Assembly: GCF_046105845.1 (NCBI RefSeq)
Contig: NZ_CP151004.1
Length of the DNA: 64,000 nucleotides
Reading direction: 5' to 3' (one strand)
From: Escherichia coli
GTDB taxonomy: Bacteria; Pseudomonadota; Gammaproteobacteria; Enterobacterales; Enterobacteriaceae
Shown: piece by piece, positions 2,062 to 32,070 of the stretch
Numbering within the stretch: position 1 is the first letter of the stretch
Layout of the letters: each line of letters opens with the position of its first letter
The notes under the pieces: model-generated
Told to the model about the DNA's origin: nothing
The model's database searches: none
The model's input: the letters and a program-made list of their open reading frames with translations, nothing else
Translations under genes and position numbers: made by a program

Positions 2062-3660
2062 TTAACGTAACGGCATAATGGGCGTGATATGTCCATTATG
2101 CCGGGCGGGCGGCGGTTGGCTGCCCGCCAGCCATTTGGGAAAATCACGTAGCGGCATCGGCTGTGCGTACAAATACCCTTGCAAAATATGCACGCCATGA
2201 CGGCGCAAATACTTCGCCTGTTCTTGCGTTTCCACGCCCTCCGCCACCAGTTCAATATTCAGTCTTTGCCCCAGCGCGATGATGATATCGGTCACCGTCG
2301 AGTTAACCGCGTCAGAACCTATAGCTGCGGTAAATGACTTATCAATTTTCAGCACGTCAGGACGTAATGTTTCAAGCCAGGAAAACGAACTGTTGCCGGT
2401 GCCGAAGTCATCAATCGCCAGTTTGACGTTTTTACGATGCAGCTCGCGGGCAATCCGATAATCAACATCCAGTAAGGCATCGCGTTCGGTGATTTCGAGG
2501 ATCAGTTGCTGAATCGGGTGAGCGCTAAACCAGTACTGATTGAGATCTTTTATCAGCACACCACGGCGAAAATGACTGGGTGCGACGTTAATGCCAACAT
2601 GAAACTGACTACTCATTGGGAAAACATGCCGCTGACGGATGGTTTCTGCCATCACATAGCGGGTCAGTGGCACAATTAAATGATGTTCTTCCGCGATAGG
2701 AATAAACACATCCGGTGAAATCCAGCCCTGACGTGGATTGTTCCAGCGCAGCAAAATCTCTACACCAATACATTGCTGGCTGCGCGCATTAAGCAAAGGC
2801 TGACAGAACAATTCGAACTCATGTTGCGCCAGGCCCAGATTGATTTCGCGGGAAAAGCTCATTCGGTAAGCGGTCGCCAGCCAGGCGATATAGCCCACCA
2901 GTAAACTTAGCAGCACCGCCAGCGGTAATTGTGTTGGAAGATAGTGCCATGCCAGCGCCGTAGCCCCCGGACCATTAACGTTAATGGTAAAAGGAAAGCG
3001 TTGCGAAGAAACCTGATAGTTTTCATTGTCTTCAGGTTGCGGAAGGGAATCTACCAGCCCATTACCATAGAGCAAATGCCGTTTGTCCACCGTCAGGCTG
3101 GCGCTACTGATTTGCGGCAGTTGTGGCTCAAGGAGCATTGCCGTCAGTAAGTCGATGTTAATCATCTCCATGACCCCAGCATTGCTACTGCCCGCTGCAG
3201 GTGTCCATTGAATCAAAACCGGACTGCCTTTAATCAGGGCATGGTCGGTCGTCAGGCGTAAAAGTGGTTGCGGTGCAGGAAGTTCAGCCAGAATGTCCAC
3301 GACGGGCACATTGCGATAACCAAAAATGCTGGAGCAATAAAGTGTGCCGTCTTGCACCAGGCCAATGGATCGCACAGTTTGGAGTTTTGCCGCCTGTTTA
3401 CGTAATGGCAAATGGGCGACAGAGCAGGGCAGACCAATCAGCGGAAGCAAGACTTCGCTACCTGCCTGTAGGGGAAGCAGTACTTTATCTAATTCCTCTA
3501 CAGCGTGATTGGCGAATTGTACTACCCGTTGTTGATTTAAGTTACGCTGTGAAATAAATCGCACGCTCAGGGTCGAAGCGAGCGTAACGAGTGCGCAAAT
3601 CGTACAAACAATCATTCGATTACGGCGATAGGTTTTAATGATCCGTTGTGCTTTTTGCAT
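2062..3660 (-). CDS. pdeD: CSS-motif-domain c-di-GMP phosphodiesterase (EAL domain)
   Basis: Track ORF 2062..3690; start moved to internal Met (MQKAQRII) giving 532 aa; N-terminal TM plus LYCSSIF (CSS) motif and C-terminal EAL-type domain. Confidence 0.85.
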   Translation of the reverse strand: MQKAQRIIKTYRRNRMIVCTICALVTLASTLSVRFISQRNLNQQRVVQFANHAVEELDKVLLPLQAGSEVLLPLIGLPCSVAHLPLRKQAAKLQTVRSIGLVQDGTLYCSSIFGYRNVPVVDILAELPAPQPLLRLTTDHALIKGSPVLIQWTPAAGSSNAGVMEMINIDLLTAMLLEPQLPQISSASLTVDKRHLLYGNGLVDSLPQPEDNENYQVSSQRFPFTINVNGPGATALAWHYLPTQLPLAVLLSLLVGYIAWLATAYRMSFSREINLGLAQHEFELFCQPLLNARSQQCIGVEILLRWNNPRQGWISPDVFIPIAEEHHLIVPLTRYVMAETIRQRHVFPMSSQFHVGINVAPSHFRRGVLIKDLNQYWFSAHPIQQLILEITERDALLDVDYRIARELHRKNVKLAIDDFGTGNSSFSWLETLRPDVLKIDKSFTAAIGSDAVNSTVTDIIIALGQRLNIELVAEGVETQEQAKYLRRHGVHILQGYLYAQPMPLRDFPKWLAGSQPPPARHNGHITPIMPLR

Positions 3661-23571: not shown

Positions 23572-24597
23572 TCAGGAATGTAGCGCTGGATGCGCGACAA
23601 AAGGTGTTTTCTGTTTGTGTTTTTTCTCCTGATACATCGCGATATCGGCAGCATGCAGGGCACTGTCTGCATCGGTCGTTTCAGGATCGACTTCTACTAT
23701 GCCAAGACTGGCACCGGGATAATACAAATCAACATCACCTAAGTGATATTCTCCACGTATTTGCTGCTGAATACGTTCTCGCAGAGACGAAATATCCGCA
23801 TTCTCGTTGTTCAGTGAAACAACCAAAAACTCATCACCGCCGAGACGACCAATAACTTCGCCATTTTGCTGGAGCGTATTAAGGCGCTCGCCAACCTGAA
23901 TGAGGAACAAATCACCACTATTATGACCAAAACGATCGTTGATTAATTTGAAGTTATCCAGATCGATAAACGCGATCATTATCTTATGGTTAAGATGTCG
24001 GGCGAGAGAAAACAGCGTCGTCAGGTTTTCAAAAATCGCCCGCCGATTCGGTAGCCCGGTTAACGAGTCGGTATACGATTGCGCAATCAGCGCAGCATTG
24101 GCTTCGCGCAGCTGTTCAACCAGTGCTTCTTTTTGAATATATTGTGCAATCAGTCCGGCGAATAACTGCAAAACCTGTTCCGCGCGTTCACTCCACTGGC
24201 GCTTCTCACTGCTGGCGGCGCAAAGCGTGCCATAGAATGATCCATCCGGTAAGTGAATTGGCGTGCTCAGAAATGTGGTGATGCCAAGATTGCGTGCCGC
24301 AATACAGTCGCCCCAACGGTCGGGGACTTCATCGCTGAAAAAGCAGTTTTCATCAATGGCGCGTTTGCATAACGAGTAATCCCACGAGACGGTAAAATTC
24401 TCCGGGATGTGCATTTTCTGGCTGTTACGGGCAAACATTATATGCTGCAGGCGCGCTTCGACATCCACTTTGGTCAGGTAGGTTGATTCCATATCAGTGA
24501 CCATTTCCAGCATCTCCAGAAGCTGTCGGACCAGACTTTCCAGTGACTGTTCTTTGGCAAGGGATTGCGAGACGCGGGCGATAATCTGATCTGACAC
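23572..24597 (-). CDS. dgcP: Diguanylate cyclase (GAF-GGDEF)
   Basis: Track ORF 23572..24726; start moved to in-frame GTG (SDQIIARVSQ) giving 341 aa; intact GGDEF (RLGGDEFLV). Confidence 0.85.
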   Translation of the reverse strand: MSDQIIARVSQSLAKEQSLESLVRQLLEMLEMVTDMESTYLTKVDVEARLQHIMFARNSQKMHIPENFTVSWDYSLCKRAIDENCFFSDEVPDRWGDCIAARNLGITTFLSTPIHLPDGSFYGTLCAASSEKRQWSERAEQVLQLFAGLIAQYIQKEALVEQLREANAALIAQSYTDSLTGLPNRRAIFENLTTLFSLARHLNHKIMIAFIDLDNFKLINDRFGHNSGDLFLIQVGERLNTLQQNGEVIGRLGGDEFLVVSLNNENADISSLRERIQQQIRGEYHLGDVDLYYPGASLGIVEVDPETTDADSALHAADIAMYQEKKHKQKTPFVAHPALHS

Positions 24598-28780: not shown

Positions 28781-30271
28781 TCATGAACGGCTGTTTTTGT
28801 TCTGCTTATTGACATATAAACGCTCATCGGAAGCTTTATACGCATCATGTAACGTATCGTTTTCTTTCATCGCGTAAATACCGGAAGAGAAGCCGATCTC
28901 TTTCTGCGGCGCGATATGTTGCAGACGTTTTTCGATACGTTCAGGCAGTTGTGCTGCAATTTGCGGCGTCGAATCGACAAGAATGATGCAGAATTCATCG
29001 CCACCGAGTCGGATGGCATAATCACTTTTACGAATCGATTGTTTAATCGCCTGAGCTAATAACGTAATCGCTAAATCCCCCTCCTGATGACCAAGGGTGT
29101 CATTTATTTGCTTTAACTTGTCCATGTCAATTGCAATAAACATCACCGAAGAACCGGATTGCACCAGTTTTTGCAACCGCTGCTCCAGTTCAGGGGTTAA
29201 AATTTTGCGATTATACAGTCCTGTCATCGCATCACTAATATTTTCTCGCGACACATTTTGGTATAAACGGAAGTGCATCCGCACCATATTCAGCAAAATT
29301 AACGCCGTCAAAATCCAGAACAGAACGCTTTTCCACGAAGACGTGATAAAGTAAAGAATATCAATGGATAACGAGACACGAATGCCGCCCGGTAAGTCAT
29401 GGACGTAACTGACATACTGGAACAGATTATCTTCGCTCTGGTTGATGATAATGTCGCGCCCCGAATCGGTATCGGTTAGCGTGACATTGAGAAAACGCCA
29501 GAGGAGAGGGCGATCATGAGTGTAAAAGATATTCCGCAGATTGTTTTTGTTAATATCCAGCAGCACAATCCCTTTTAGCTGCCCTGCGACATATACCGGC
29601 GTCAGCAAACTCATCACGTTCTGTTTAGTACGCTGATCCTGGTAAATGCTCGATAAAACGGTACGCCCGGTAAATACCTTTTCAATATCTTTGCGATCGA
29701 TGCCAATACTTCCTGACTGCAGGAAAGACCAGTTATTCATCGCAAAGTACTCAACATTAACCGGCTCATAAAAATAGACATAGCGGTCATTGAGATCGAG
29801 ATAATAGTGAAATTTCTCTTCGGCCATCCCAAGACCTGAACCGTAATCATCCTGGTGGCGGTTGCCTTCCACTGCCTGATCAAAAGCGGGTAATAGTGCT
29901 GCAGCTTCCACAATTGTGTCGCAGTCAGTGGATGCGGTTTGTAGTGTGCCGCGTAAGCCAGGGTATTTATGGGCAGTCAGGTTTAAGCCATGGGTATTAT
30001 TGGCAGACTCAAAAGCCTCGCAGATGGCGCGCCGCTGTTCTGGCGACACTTCCGACTGCTCAGCAGCGAGAGCGCGCATCACATGCGCGGCAATACTCTG
30101 ATTCTGATACTTATCATAAAGAAAGGAGGAGTCAGCTCTCTGCACGATATAGCGCAGATAGGCACTCATTGCTCTGTCGCTGGCGACAAGTTCAAAAATA
30201 AGGAAGGAAGATGTCAGCACAATGACACTTGCGGCGATAAAATGCCGGAGCATTCTATGGTGCAATTTCAT
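28781..30271 (-). CDS. dgcJ: Membrane-anchored diguanylate cyclase
   Basis: Track ORF 28781..30451; start moved to Met61 (MKLHHRMLRHF) giving 496 aa; GGDEF intact (RLGGDEFCI). Confidence 0.85.
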   Translation of the reverse strand: MKLHHRMLRHFIAASVIVLTSSFLIFELVASDRAMSAYLRYIVQRADSSFLYDKYQNQSIAAHVMRALAAEQSEVSPEQRRAICEAFESANNTHGLNLTAHKYPGLRGTLQTASTDCDTIVEAAALLPAFDQAVEGNRHQDDYGSGLGMAEEKFHYYLDLNDRYVYFYEPVNVEYFAMNNWSFLQSGSIGIDRKDIEKVFTGRTVLSSIYQDQRTKQNVMSLLTPVYVAGQLKGIVLLDINKNNLRNIFYTHDRPLLWRFLNVTLTDTDSGRDIIINQSEDNLFQYVSYVHDLPGGIRVSLSIDILYFITSSWKSVLFWILTALILLNMVRMHFRLYQNVSRENISDAMTGLYNRKILTPELEQRLQKLVQSGSSVMFIAIDMDKLKQINDTLGHQEGDLAITLLAQAIKQSIRKSDYAIRLGGDEFCIILVDSTPQIAAQLPERIEKRLQHIAPQKEIGFSSGIYAMKENDTLHDAYKASDERLYVNKQNKNSRS

Positions 30272-30451
30272 GATAAATGGCACTCCTTCGGTTAGTGAAA
30301 CGAGAAAACCAGATAAAGTTCGATTGCGGCCTGGCACAGGGGCGCTAATTATACTCATCTCTGCGCCGCTGGGGAGGGGAAATTTAGGGGTAATAGTAAT
30401 AAATTGTATGCAAAAGCCACGCAAAAAGCATGGCTCTGAATATTTTTGCAC

Positions 30452-31927
30452 TTAAATATGATGAATAATCACTTTGTTGCCCCCCTCGCTTTTCGCTTCG
30501 CGTAAGGCTTTATCTGCTTCCGTCATGACAAGCGAGATATTACGTGTGTCACCCGTTGAAAAAACCGTGCCAATACTGATGGTCATTTGCTCAGGAACAT
30601 CATATCTGTTACTAAAGCCGGTCAGGAGTTCGACATTTTTACGCATACGATCCGCAATGATTTTTGCCTGGGCACTATTGAGTTCGGTAAATAGCAAGCC
30701 AAACACCTCACCCTCCAGTCGCGCTAAAATATCATCGGGGCGGATGCTTTGCTGGATAATATCGACAATTGATACCAGCACTTTATCACCCACACGATGT
30801 CCCCATTGGGCATTGATGCGTTTGAACTGATTAATATCAACCAGCATGACACAAAAGTCCTTAACAACAGGTCGCGACAATAATGACTCTACGCTGTTGA
30901 AAAAGTAGCGCCGATTATAAATATTGGTCAGTACATCATGAACTGCCAGTTTGCTGGAGAGTTGCAGTTCCTGAAAAATGTTATAAATCAGAAAAGACAC
31001 AACAAACAGTTTACTGGAGACTTCAATCCCGCGACTGATATACCAGATGGTGTAATTATACTCATCCAGAGTTAGTAGAAGTAAGTTGCAGCATAGCGAT
31101 GCCAGACATAATAATGCTATTAACGGCCATAGTTCGCTGGCTAATCGTGTACGCATGATAATAAAGAACAGTAAAAATGCCCACAGACAAACCAATATTT
31201 TTGTATAGTTGATTCCCCAGGTCGCAGTATGGTTGTCCGGACAGTAATCGACGACATACAAAGAATAGTCAGCGTTATAACTGCTCAGATTGTGTGCCAG
31301 AAGGGGAAAAACTAAAAAAGGAATCAGCGCCAGTAACAGAATGCCAGTTTTTTTCTTATTGTTGTCAAGGATGTTGTCTTTCCCATAACAAAAGAGCGCC
31401 AGCGAGGTTAAACAAATGAAACTTAGTTGGCGGAAAATATAGAAAATAGAAACATCATTCGACTTTGTCTGGATCAGTGTACTGCCGTTGATTGGTTTAT
31501 GGATAATTACAATGGTTTCAACTAAATAGATAAGGCCACTTAAAAATGCAAGGCTTAAAATGAGTGTTGGTAAAATTTGTTTGTTAGTGAAATACTTCAT
31601 TAACATGAAAAGAAAAATGACGGCGTTAAGGAAAAACAAAGCCACAACAACCATCAGGTAATTCATCTGTGGGATGAGTTTTACATTCGTGTTTTCGTTA
31701 TATAAGGTAGTAATGCAAAATAAAATTAACGTCAGCAATAAGCTGAAAATAAAAAAGCCTTGAGCTTTTAATTTTTGTGTACCCATAGAAGCCATAAAAA
31801 GGAGAGCAATGTGAGTGCTGGATTTTATTGATGGCAGAGATATATAGTTTTGACCAGGATCAATTTTCGTTAACGATAAAAAATATTTAAAGAATAACCC
31901 CAGGGAAACACGTGTTGACCGAATCAT
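30452..31927 (-). CDS. cdgI: Degenerate GGDEF-domain membrane protein (probable c-di-GMP binding protein)
   Basis: 491-aa ORF (yeaI); multi-TM N-terminus; GGDEF position reads EGEVF. Confidence 0.85.
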   Translation of the reverse strand: MIRSTRVSLGLFFKYFLSLTKIDPGQNYISLPSIKSSTHIALLFMASMGTQKLKAQGFFIFSLLLTLILFCITTLYNENTNVKLIPQMNYLMVVVALFFLNAVIFLFMLMKYFTNKQILPTLILSLAFLSGLIYLVETIVIIHKPINGSTLIQTKSNDVSIFYIFRQLSFICLTSLALFCYGKDNILDNNKKKTGILLLALIPFLVFPLLAHNLSSYNADYSLYVVDYCPDNHTATWGINYTKILVCLWAFLLFFIIMRTRLASELWPLIALLCLASLCCNLLLLTLDEYNYTIWYISRGIEVSSKLFVVSFLIYNIFQELQLSSKLAVHDVLTNIYNRRYFFNSVESLLSRPVVKDFCVMLVDINQFKRINAQWGHRVGDKVLVSIVDIIQQSIRPDDILARLEGEVFGLLFTELNSAQAKIIADRMRKNVELLTGFSNRYDVPEQMTISIGTVFSTGDTRNISLVMTEADKALREAKSEGGNKVIIHHI

Positions 31928-32029: not shown

Positions 32030-32070
32030 GTGAGCTAAAAATCAGCCAGGCGATAATGACCCGGCTGATA
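32030..32070 (-). terminator. Candidate terminator hairpin downstream of yeaH
   Basis: Imperfect inverted repeat TCAGCCAGG...CCCGGCTGA just past the yeaH stop with a T-rich tract on the minus strand; coordinates approximate. Confidence 0.35.

Follow-up and report, generated by a model that had tools for sequence, protein, structure and literature searches.

The locus raises two linked questions: what a protein whose GGDEF position reads EGEVF does, and whether it came from the intact cyclase encoded next to it. The preliminary description of this stretch of Escherichia coli DNA (64,000 nucleotides, hereafter the window) proposed a tandem duplication followed by conversion of one copy into a c-di-GMP receptor. 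We examined the two halves of that proposal separately, and they fared differently.

Identity and layout of the locus

The window comes from the chromosome of E. coli: it matches strain CFIAFB20140388 at 99.7% identity, and in that strain the genes in question are annotated cdgI and dgcJ. The region is a core, well-studied E. coli gene pair, cdgI (yeaI) and dgcJ (yeaJ). The gene is the one that encodes CdgI (YeaI, b1785) in E. coli K-12; at 98% identity over 491 aa, the K-12-type protein cluster shares EGEVF, the RPDD I-site, MASE4 and the slot between yeaH and dgcJ, differing only by strain-level substitutions such as I3/V7 at the doubtful N-terminus and D426 versus E. The features considered below are as follows.

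2062..3660, minus strand: pdeD (yoaD), CSS-motif EAL phosphodiesterase, reads EIL; about 25 kb from cdgI-dgcJ
23572..24597, minus strand: dgcP (yeaP), GAF and GGDEF domains, canonical GGDEF without RxxD; not adjacent to cdgI-dgcJ
28781..30271, minus strand: dgcJ (yeaJ) CDS, GAPES1 periplasmic sensor and canonical GGDEF, 496 aa (NF040885)
28991..29005, minus strand: canonical A-site G423-G-D-E-F427 of DgcJ (alignment)
29021-29032, minus strand: I-site R414-K-S-D417 of DgcJ (alignment)
30272..30451, minus strand: cdgI-dgcJ intergenic region, 180 bp, with GGAG about 10 nt before the dgcJ ATG
30452..31927, minus strand: cdgI (yeaI) CDS as annotated, 491 aa
30473..30946, minus strand: degenerate GGDEF domain of CdgI, aa 328-485 (Pfam PF00990, E=4e-44, model positions 1-161 of 161)
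30701..30715, minus strand: degenerate A-site E405-G-E-V-F409 of CdgI, replacing GG(D/E)EF (alignment)
30731..30742, minus strand: intact primary I-site R396-P-D-D399 of CdgI, RxxD, five residues before the A-site (alignment)
30971..31666, minus strand: MASE4 integral-membrane sensor domain of CdgI, aa 88-319 (Pfam PF17158, E=1.6e-48)
32041..32069, minus strand: terminator-like hairpin and T-run just past yeaH, parting yeaH from cdgI (consensus scan only)

Domain and motif searches found in the window all four c-di-GMP genes that had been listed (pdeD, dgcP, dgcJ and cdgI), and alignment showed the GGDEF motifs of dgcP and dgcJ, described as intact, to be canonical. The reading of pdeD as a CSS-EAL protein also stands, with the CSS motif present and the EAL position reading EIL, as does the placement of cdgI, with its EGEVF motif, immediately 5' of the co-oriented dgcJ across a 180-bp gap. 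The word "cluster" suits only the adjacent cdgI and dgcJ; unrelated genes separate them from dgcP, at a distance of about 4 kb, and from pdeD, at about 25 kb. E. coli carries 29 GGDEF/EAL genes in 4.6 Mb (PMC5635695), from which about 0.4 would be expected per 64 kb; by our own arithmetic the Poisson probability of four in one window is about 8e-4 per window, or roughly 0.05 genome-wide. A consensus scan of the cdgI-dgcJ gap found no convincing promoter or terminator above shuffle expectation.

Active site and I-site of CdgI

Both proteins match the GGDEF profile (PF00990) over its full length, CdgI as listed above and DgcJ at aa 346-494 (E=6e-40). Alignment of their A-sites and I-sites, which the preliminary description had put forward as a check, gave EGEVF and RPDD for CdgI and GGDEF and RKSD for DgcJ (in the string RKSD-YAIRL-GGDEF). 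CdgI lacks the GG(D/E)EF A-site of competent diguanylate cyclases, and DgcJ has it. In PleD numbering the replacements in CdgI are G368E, E371V, D329N and D336A, the last two corresponding to N366 and A373, at four positions that are invariant in 12 of 12 E. coli cyclases and in 12 canonical MASE4-GGDEF relatives. The other catalytic and substrate residues scored were PleD D327, D329, K332, N335, D336, H340, D344 and R366; apart from the replacements named, the signature residues are retained. PleD numbers were carried onto CdgI by means of the alignment offset. The arginine change R446G (CdgI G483) was considered as a further inactivating change and set aside as not diagnostic, since that arginine is also missing from DgcJ, DgcN and DgcP, which are active cyclases.

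The E. coli protein retains the guanine-binding residues N372 and D381, the Mg ligands D364 and E407, and K369 and R403. Because N372, D381, D364 and E407 are kept, nucleotide could still bind at the A-site of E. coli CdgI. The I-site consists of R396-P-D-D399 together with a second arginine, R427 (PleD R390), and among the degenerate orthologues R396 is conserved in 11 of 12, D399 in 12 of 12 and R427 in 12 of 12. PopA (Caulobacter) and PelD (Pseudomonas) likewise pair a dead A-site with a surviving RxxD I-site, and c-di-GMP binding there makes receptors of their GGDEF domains. Those proteins differ from CdgI in their partner domains (receiver domains in PopA, transmembrane and GAF domains in PelD) and in having known outputs, and CdgI shows no specific sequence relationship to them beyond the GGDEF fold.

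The degenerate motif, the intact I-site and c-di-GMP binding are all already published for CdgI, so that the finding is an ordinary one with little discovery value; the gene name cdgI already encodes the function. Purified His6-GGDEF(CdgI) binds c-di-GMP (PMC5635695, Fig. S4B), and the same study reported the degenerate A-site with its intact I-site, strong heteromeric two-hybrid contacts between GGDEF(CdgI) and several GGDEF domains, and a protein that was undetectable under laboratory conditions and toxic on overexpression. Another paper calls YeaI (CdgI) "catalytically non-functional" and counts it in the MASE4-GGDEF family (PMC10459773).

The literature is nonetheless at odds on cyclase activity, as YeaI has also been listed with "verified diguanylate cyclase activity", the source being given as Sanchez-Torres et al. 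2011 (PMC3484386). That listing, the set of A-site residues retained in E. coli (D364, E407, N372, D381, K369 and R403), and the ability of WspR, a foreign cyclase, to correct the yeaI biofilm defect in no-salt LB (PMC3484386) would all be compatible with a weak or conditional cyclase that works despite EGEVF. The RefSeq name for most E. coli copies, "sensor domain-containing diguanylate cyclase", points the same way, but we regard that label as a mislabel that overstates function. Against residual catalysis are the four replacements at otherwise invariant positions, the failure of WspR to rescue the yeaI biofilm defect in glycerol medium (PMC3484386), the judgement of the later specialist papers that the protein is catalytically inactive (PMC5635695, PMC10459773), and drift among orthologues of E407 to D, N or K and of K369 to R, which a catalytic site would not tolerate. 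We therefore think it quite improbable that CdgI is still a cyclase.

CdgI is most likely no enzyme but a non-catalytic c-di-GMP-binding protein that serves as a receptor, or as a modulator through contact with other GGDEF domains. It would be an inner-membrane MASE4-GGDEF protein whose GGDEF domain lacks the residues needed for c-di-GMP synthesis, with c-di-GMP presumably bound at the I-site and a cellular output that may consist of modulating partner proteins.

Ancestry of CdgI

The preliminary description took cdgI for a paralogue of dgcJ, one cyclase gene having doubled into a tandem pair of which one copy then degenerated into a receptor. The two genes are indeed adjacent and co-oriented, and their products are close in size (491 and 496 aa) and each have a C-terminal GGDEF domain. 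Their N-terminal domains, however, are unrelated (MASE4 in CdgI, GAPES1 in DgcJ), and BLASTP aligned the proteins at 27% identity over only 153 aa. When 13 E. coli GGDEF domains were aligned, CdgI and DgcJ were 21.4% identical, the second-lowest value for CdgI, below that with 10 of 11 other E. coli cyclases and among the lowest of any E. coli pair. The NCBIfam DgcJ model gave CdgI just 66 bits, under the DgcN, DgcQ and PleD models, and Citrobacter already has the two as distinct proteins, each of them canonical.

The affinities of CdgI lie instead with DgcT (YcdT). GGDEF identity between them was 44.8% in the same alignment, and homology extends over the full length of the proteins (37% over 449 aa, E=2e-99), CdgI having the PF17158-then-GGDEF arrangement of the MASE4-GGDEF family. 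In a neighbour-joining tree (our own implementation, Kimura distances, 300 replicates), bootstrap support was 0% for a clade of CdgI with DgcJ, 99% for CdgI with the syntenic Citrobacter GGEEF proteins, and 80% for all MASE4-GGDEF proteins. These results agree with published assignment of CdgI to the YcdT/DgcX/YeaI family (PMC10459773, PMC4287979). DgcT and DgcX, which are active MASE4-GGDEF cyclases, have the architecture and RPDD-type I-site in common with CdgI, but unlike it they keep GGEEF and all catalytic residues and are encoded at other loci, dgcT adjoining pgaABCD.

Tandem duplication of a cyclase into cdgI and dgcJ is thus refuted at the level testable here, and we give it almost no credence. 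The paralogues of CdgI are DgcT and DgcX, and cdgI and dgcJ are neighbours rather than duplicates; CdgI derives from a DgcT/DgcX-like MASE4 cyclase lineage, and dgcJ is not its parent.

Orthologues, selection and loss of catalysis

The gene order yeaG-yeaH-X-dgcJ-yeaK-yeaL-nimR-nimT is kept in Citrobacter sp. R56, Awk 4 and NCU1; Salmonella is not known to carry a gene in the X slot. In the three Citrobacter, X is a MASE4-GGEEF protein 57-61% identical to CdgI, a positional orthologue in the yeaH-X-dgcJ-yeaK slot that differs from CdgI in having a catalytic signature canonical at every residue. GGEEF is the reading in the syntenic Citrobacter orthologues and in all other MASE4-GGDEF relatives. 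Orthologues from the Escherichia clade carry drifting dead motifs (EGEVF, EGEEF, DGEVF, EGDVF, EGNVF and EGKRF). Within this degenerate clade 6 of 15 catalytic-signature sites vary, compared with 92 of 157 other sites (p=0.18); among the canonical MASE4-GGDEF relatives only 1 of 15 signature sites varies, compared with 130 of 157 others (p=3e-9). Recent horizontal acquisition of cdgI, considered on account of its low GC content (0.39), was rejected, as the orthologues in Citrobacter are just as rich in AT and lie in synteny.

Among Escherichia species, dN/dS of CdgI was 0.07-0.11 in the GGDEF domain and 0.03-0.10 in MASE4, indicating purifying selection. These values are two- to five-fold above those of DgcJ, and the constraint on cdgI is therefore weaker. 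That excess is one of several observations that would fit a silent relic without present function and on its way to becoming a pseudogene; the protein is undetectable in standard conditions (PMC5635695), the gene is missing from S. flexneri 2457T (PMC11327459), and public data contain alleles truncated by a nonsense codon, by deletions that fuse cdgI to dgcJ or, abundantly in the protein database, by insertion of IS1 or loss of 1 bp at codon 346. The 1-bp deletion and the junction with IS1, however, occurred in 0 of 5426 complete E. coli genomes, and we dropped the idea of frequent pseudogenisation in E. coli when both of these tested lesions proved missing there. The gene itself is present in 5418 of the 5426, and in 5408 it is covered to at least 80% and full length at the DNA level. 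Low dN/dS across both domains, conservation of the I-site while the A-site drifts, and reported deletion phenotypes and SrsR regulation (PMC3484386, PMC9181523) also speak against a relic, which we judge to be very improbable.

The proposal that a cyclase turned into a receptor is, by contrast with the duplication, supported: a canonical Citrobacter orthologue occupies the same slot, the dead motifs drift, RxxD is kept, and dN/dS is about 0.1. The ancestor of CdgI would have been a canonical MASE4-GGEEF cyclase that already occupied the slot flanked by yeaH and dgcJ when Escherichia and some Citrobacter last shared an ancestor, and the orthologues from the two genera offer a clean natural before-and-after pair for the study of a cyclase becoming a receptor. 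Taken as a whole, we consider it highly probable that CdgI is a degenerate, c-di-GMP-binding protein of MASE4-GGEEF ancestry with DgcJ as a non-duplicate neighbour. Domain architectures, motif states, synteny, phylogeny and selection were computed here, while c-di-GMP binding by GGDEF(CdgI), the GGDEF-GGDEF two-hybrid contacts and very low expression come from the literature.

DgcJ and the adjacency of the two genes

DgcJ scored 747 bits against the NCBIfam DgcJ equivalog NF040885, for which the cut-off is 500, and the protein in the window retains Y210 and D239. In these residues, in GAPES1 and in the equivalog match it resembles Salmonella YeaJ (STM1283), an AI-2-sensing GAPES1 cyclase, a likeness seen at the level of sequence. 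YeaJ/GAPES1 senses AI-2, which binds to GAPES1 of the EHEC homologue (PMC9637222). DgcJ is a canonical GAPES1-GGDEF cyclase unrelated to CdgI, with a sensor that in homologues responds to AI-2.

The adjacency of cdgI and dgcJ is older than the Escherichia/Citrobacter split, and it might reflect a functional couple. In it CdgI, once expressed and carrying c-di-GMP in its I-site, would form heterodimers with the GGDEF domains of DgcJ or other cyclases and so gate AI-2-driven c-di-GMP output according to a membrane signal sensed through MASE4. Two-hybrid contacts between GGDEF(CdgI) and several other such domains hint at such a couple (PMC5635695), which we nevertheless think unlikely.

Start codons

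The mechanical open reading frame of dgcJ reaches back to a GTG (30451), 60 codons before the ATG at 30271, but a GGAG Shine-Dalgarno sequence precedes that ATG. The first 44 annotated codons of CdgI look non-coding, resembling a conserved leader, and the conserved coding part of cdgI probably starts at M45 (31795) or M48 (31786), a point that matters to anyone cloning or tagging the protein.

Gene order and domain content

The window is chromosomal E. coli DNA. The 3147 bases spanning cdgI and dgcJ are found at 95-99.7% identity in 5419 of 5426 complete E. coli genomes; in the best-matching genomes the two genes carry these names. The preliminary description of this pair was correct as to a real, already known feature, with cdgI directly upstream of dgcJ on the same strand (a 180-bp gap, both on the minus strand). 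It also spoke of a c-di-GMP cluster; all four genes were located in the window, dgcP and dgcJ with GGDEF intact, but "cluster" overstates the arrangement, since cdgI and dgcJ are the only two that adjoin. The annotated order is yeaG-yeaH-cdgI-dgcJ-yeaK-yoaI-yeaL-nimR-nimT...dgcP.

Genes and predicted domains of the c-di-GMP proteins in the window
30452-31927, minus strand: cdgI, 491 aa; MASE4, aa 88-319 (Pfam, E=1.6e-48); GGDEF, aa 328-485 (Pfam, E=4e-44); EGEVF at the A-site position, aa 405-409, preceded by RPDD, aa 396-399
28781-30271, minus strand: dgcJ, 496 aa, as in the RefSeq annotation; GAPES1, aa 31-304 (Pfam, E=1e-150); GGDEF, aa 346-494 (Pfam, E=6e-40); motifs RKSD...GGDEF
23572-24597: dgcP, GGDEF intact
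2062-3660: pdeD, CSS motif, EIL

Alignment of the GGDEF domains bore out the degenerate EGEVF A-site of CdgI beside a retained RPDD I-site, and the GGDEF and RKSD motifs of DgcJ. RefSeq/PGAP names most E. coli cdgI copies "sensor domain-containing diguanylate cyclase" and a minority "GGDEF domain-containing protein"; the cyclase name overstates CdgI function, because the A-site reads EGEVF. The mechanical dgcJ ORF extends 60 codons further upstream to a GTG, and a GGAG precedes the ATG at 30271, where a start yields the RefSeq protein. DgcJ passes the NCBIfam DgcJ equivalog (747 bits, cut-off 500) and keeps Y210 and D239, reported as needed for binding of AI-2, which activates the Salmonella YeaJ cyclase and is bound by GAPES1 of the EHEC homologue (PMC9637222).

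CdgI is a MASE4 family member and not a copy of DgcJ

The proposed origin of cdgI by tandem duplication of dgcJ is wrong. The sensor halves, MASE4 and GAPES1, are unrelated Pfam families, and BLASTP aligns CdgI with DgcJ in the GGDEF domain alone (27% over 153 aa, E=2e-13); K-12 DgcT, an active MASE4-GGDEF cyclase, aligns at 37% identity along 449 aa (E=2e-99). Among 13 GGDEF domains, aligned with the other K-12 cyclase genes included, CdgI is 44.8% identical to DgcT and 21.4% to DgcJ, with only CdgI-DgcP lower. Neighbour-joining of 35 GGDEF domains recovered a CdgI+DgcJ grouping in none of 300 bootstraps (0%) and all MASE4-GGDEF proteins as one group at 80%, in agreement with published work assigning YeaI (CdgI), YcdT (DgcT) and DgcX to one family with a common N-terminal domain (PMC4287979, PMC5635695, PMC10459773).

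Ancestry of the degenerate A-site

Searching about 5.8 billion proteins turned up close relatives of CdgI as well as MASE4-GGDEF proteins at greater distance (clusters with P handles), a scan of one genome per species gave 11 loci, and synteny was assessed by tblastn with the proteins neighbouring cdgI in the window. Several Escherichia species maintain the order yeaG-yeaH-X-dgcJ-yeaK-yeaL-nimR-nimT, and so do Citrobacter sp. R56, Awk 4 and NCU1, whose X proteins share 57-61% identity with CdgI; the metagenomic relatives P0012 and P0018 are flanked by yeaH and/or dgcJ.

Catalytic and I-site positions were numbered after the PleD structure, with an alignment offset of +37. The canonical set (D, D, K, N, D, H, D, R, GGEEF) is complete in the four syntenic proteins of Citrobacter type and in each of the eight remaining MASE4-GGDEF relatives. 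On the Escherichia side the first A-site glycine is E or D in 12/12 clade members and the fourth-position glutamate is lost in 11/12, P0007 retaining it. The PleD D329 position is N in all Escherichia members, and the D336 position is A, T, N or D.

A-site motifs on the Escherichia side
EGEVF: E. coli, E. whittamii, sp. E1V33, P0012
EGEEF: P0007
DGEVF: Escherichia sp. E69
EGDVF: P0009, SCPM-O-B-8794
EGNVF: E. albertii
EGKRF: P0018

Neighbour-joining bootstrap support was 100% for the degenerate clade and 99% for this clade joined with the syntenic Citrobacter GGEEF proteins. Read parsimoniously, these sequences indicate a canonical MASE4 cyclase that already stood beside dgcJ and whose A-site was damaged a single time, on the Escherichia side, with drift ever since. 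The small additions made here are the syntenic canonical Citrobacter orthologues, the dead motifs that keep drifting, and the neutrality of codons 1-44, described below. YeaI/CdgI is also present in related genera (Cimdins-Ahne et al.), and the supplementary figures of that study may therefore already cover part of the first two additions.

Between Escherichia and Citrobacter (loci L016, L018, L019), cdgI and dgcJ evolve far faster than their neighbours: CdgI is 57-61% and DgcJ 63-64% identical, YeaG 98%, YeaL 96%, YeaH 94-96% and YeaK 86-88%. At L022, which like L023 comes from a metagenomic relative, DgcJ (68%) and NimT (81%) are as distant from E. coli as those of Citrobacter, and CdgI is 85% identical in MASE4 but only 60% in the GGDEF core; at L023, CdgI is only 63% identical and DgcJ 84%. 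These identities suggest recombination in or around cdgI between enteric lineages, and hence a mosaic locus history.

Constraint and maintenance

In canonical MASE4-GGDEF relatives 1/15 catalytic-signature sites vary, versus 130/157 others (Fisher p=3e-9). The counts for the degenerate clade are 6/15 and 92/157 (p=0.18), and the special constraint on catalytic positions is therefore gone. The I-site is retained among the 12 degenerate members (R396 in 11/12, D399 and R427 in 12/12). Together with the canonical syntenic orthologues, these patterns make the suggested conversion of a cyclase into a receptor a sound one. The lone exception at R396, HPDD for RPDD in the single genome of Escherichia sp. 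MOD1-EC7003 (L011), also has T at the D336 position and is 97% identical in the rest of the protein; this is an oddity of the sequencing or of the strain, or else a copy that has lost c-di-GMP binding too.

Nei-Gojobori dN/dS, window versus five other Escherichia species
CdgI GGDEF domain: 0.07-0.11
CdgI MASE4: 0.03-0.10
DgcJ: 0.02-0.04 (E1V33, E. whittamii and E69 only)
YeaH: 0.004-0.01

CdgI is clearly under purifying selection, less strongly than its neighbour. That cdgI is a silent relic is unlikely given a dN/dS of 0.03-0.11 and a DNA sequence of full length in 5408/5426 complete E. coli genomes; CdgI is therefore a non-catalytic protein that is being maintained, not a relic in decay.

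Predicted function

CdgI would be held in the inner membrane via MASE4 and be unable to condense GTP, because the A-site glycine-glycine turn and the second acidic residue are gone. Residual cyclase activity is unlikely. The study of Sanchez-Torres et al. 2011 reportedly drew on the phenotypes of mutants and on c-di-GMP levels in cells rather than on enzymology. It is the source cited where YeaI is listed with "verified" cyclase activity (PMC3484386), which speaks for such activity.

The purified His-tagged GGDEF domain of CdgI binds c-di-GMP (Sarenko et al. 2017, PMC5635695), presumably at RxxD/R427, and in two-hybrid assays it contacts several other GGDEF domains strongly (PMC5635695). Through this binding CdgI most likely serves as a receptor, or else modulates other GGDEF proteins, as a partner or inhibitor, in a c-di-GMP-dependent way. 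The protein is below detection under standard conditions, with CsrA repression given as the cause, and its overexpression is toxic (PMC5635695); SrsR, which binds upstream of the gene, increases cdgI mRNA (PMC9181523). Deletion of yeaI in CFT073 reduces biofilm, a defect that a foreign cyclase rescues in no-salt LB and not in glycerol minimal medium (PMC3484386).

Truncated alleles, N-terminus and base composition

Public protein data contain large clusters of truncated CdgI: P0013 (639 members; a 1-bp deletion at codon 346, followed at once by a stop), P0019 (249 members; a nonsense codon at 296) and P0023 (934 members; insertion, near codon 273, of an IS1 end recognised by its terminal repeat). 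Deletion fusions of the type cdgI'-'dgcJ (P0026, P0035) are rare, and lesion-bearing relatives of the window cdgI lie at L025:3501-3571 and L026:3285-3348. The 1-bp deletion and the IS1 junction each occur in 0/5426 complete E. coli genomes, and both lesions probably derive from Shigella or from further lineages that this set does not include. S. flexneri 2457T has no cdgI (PMC11327459).

Annotated codons 1-44 (31796-31927, minus strand) look non-coding. Against three Escherichia species their dN/dS is 0.42, 1.14 and 1.24 (rest of cdgI 0.03-0.11), with unusually low dS (0.10-0.18). The E69-type species lack an in-frame ATG here, L015 has another frame and E. whittamii a TTG; E. albertii CdgI is 447 aa long, and DgcT and the Citrobacter orthologues begin to align at M48. 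Translation probably begins at M45 (31795) or M48 (31786), and the stretch upstream may be a conserved regulatory leader.

cdgI stands out as AT-rich, with a GC content of 0.388 over the gene, 0.361 across its MASE4 part and down to 0.32 in 500-bp windows (whole window 0.492). The syntenic Citrobacter orthologues are equally AT-rich (GC 0.37-0.38), so this composition is old and does not point to recent import; it could be one reason why cdgI is reported to be silent.
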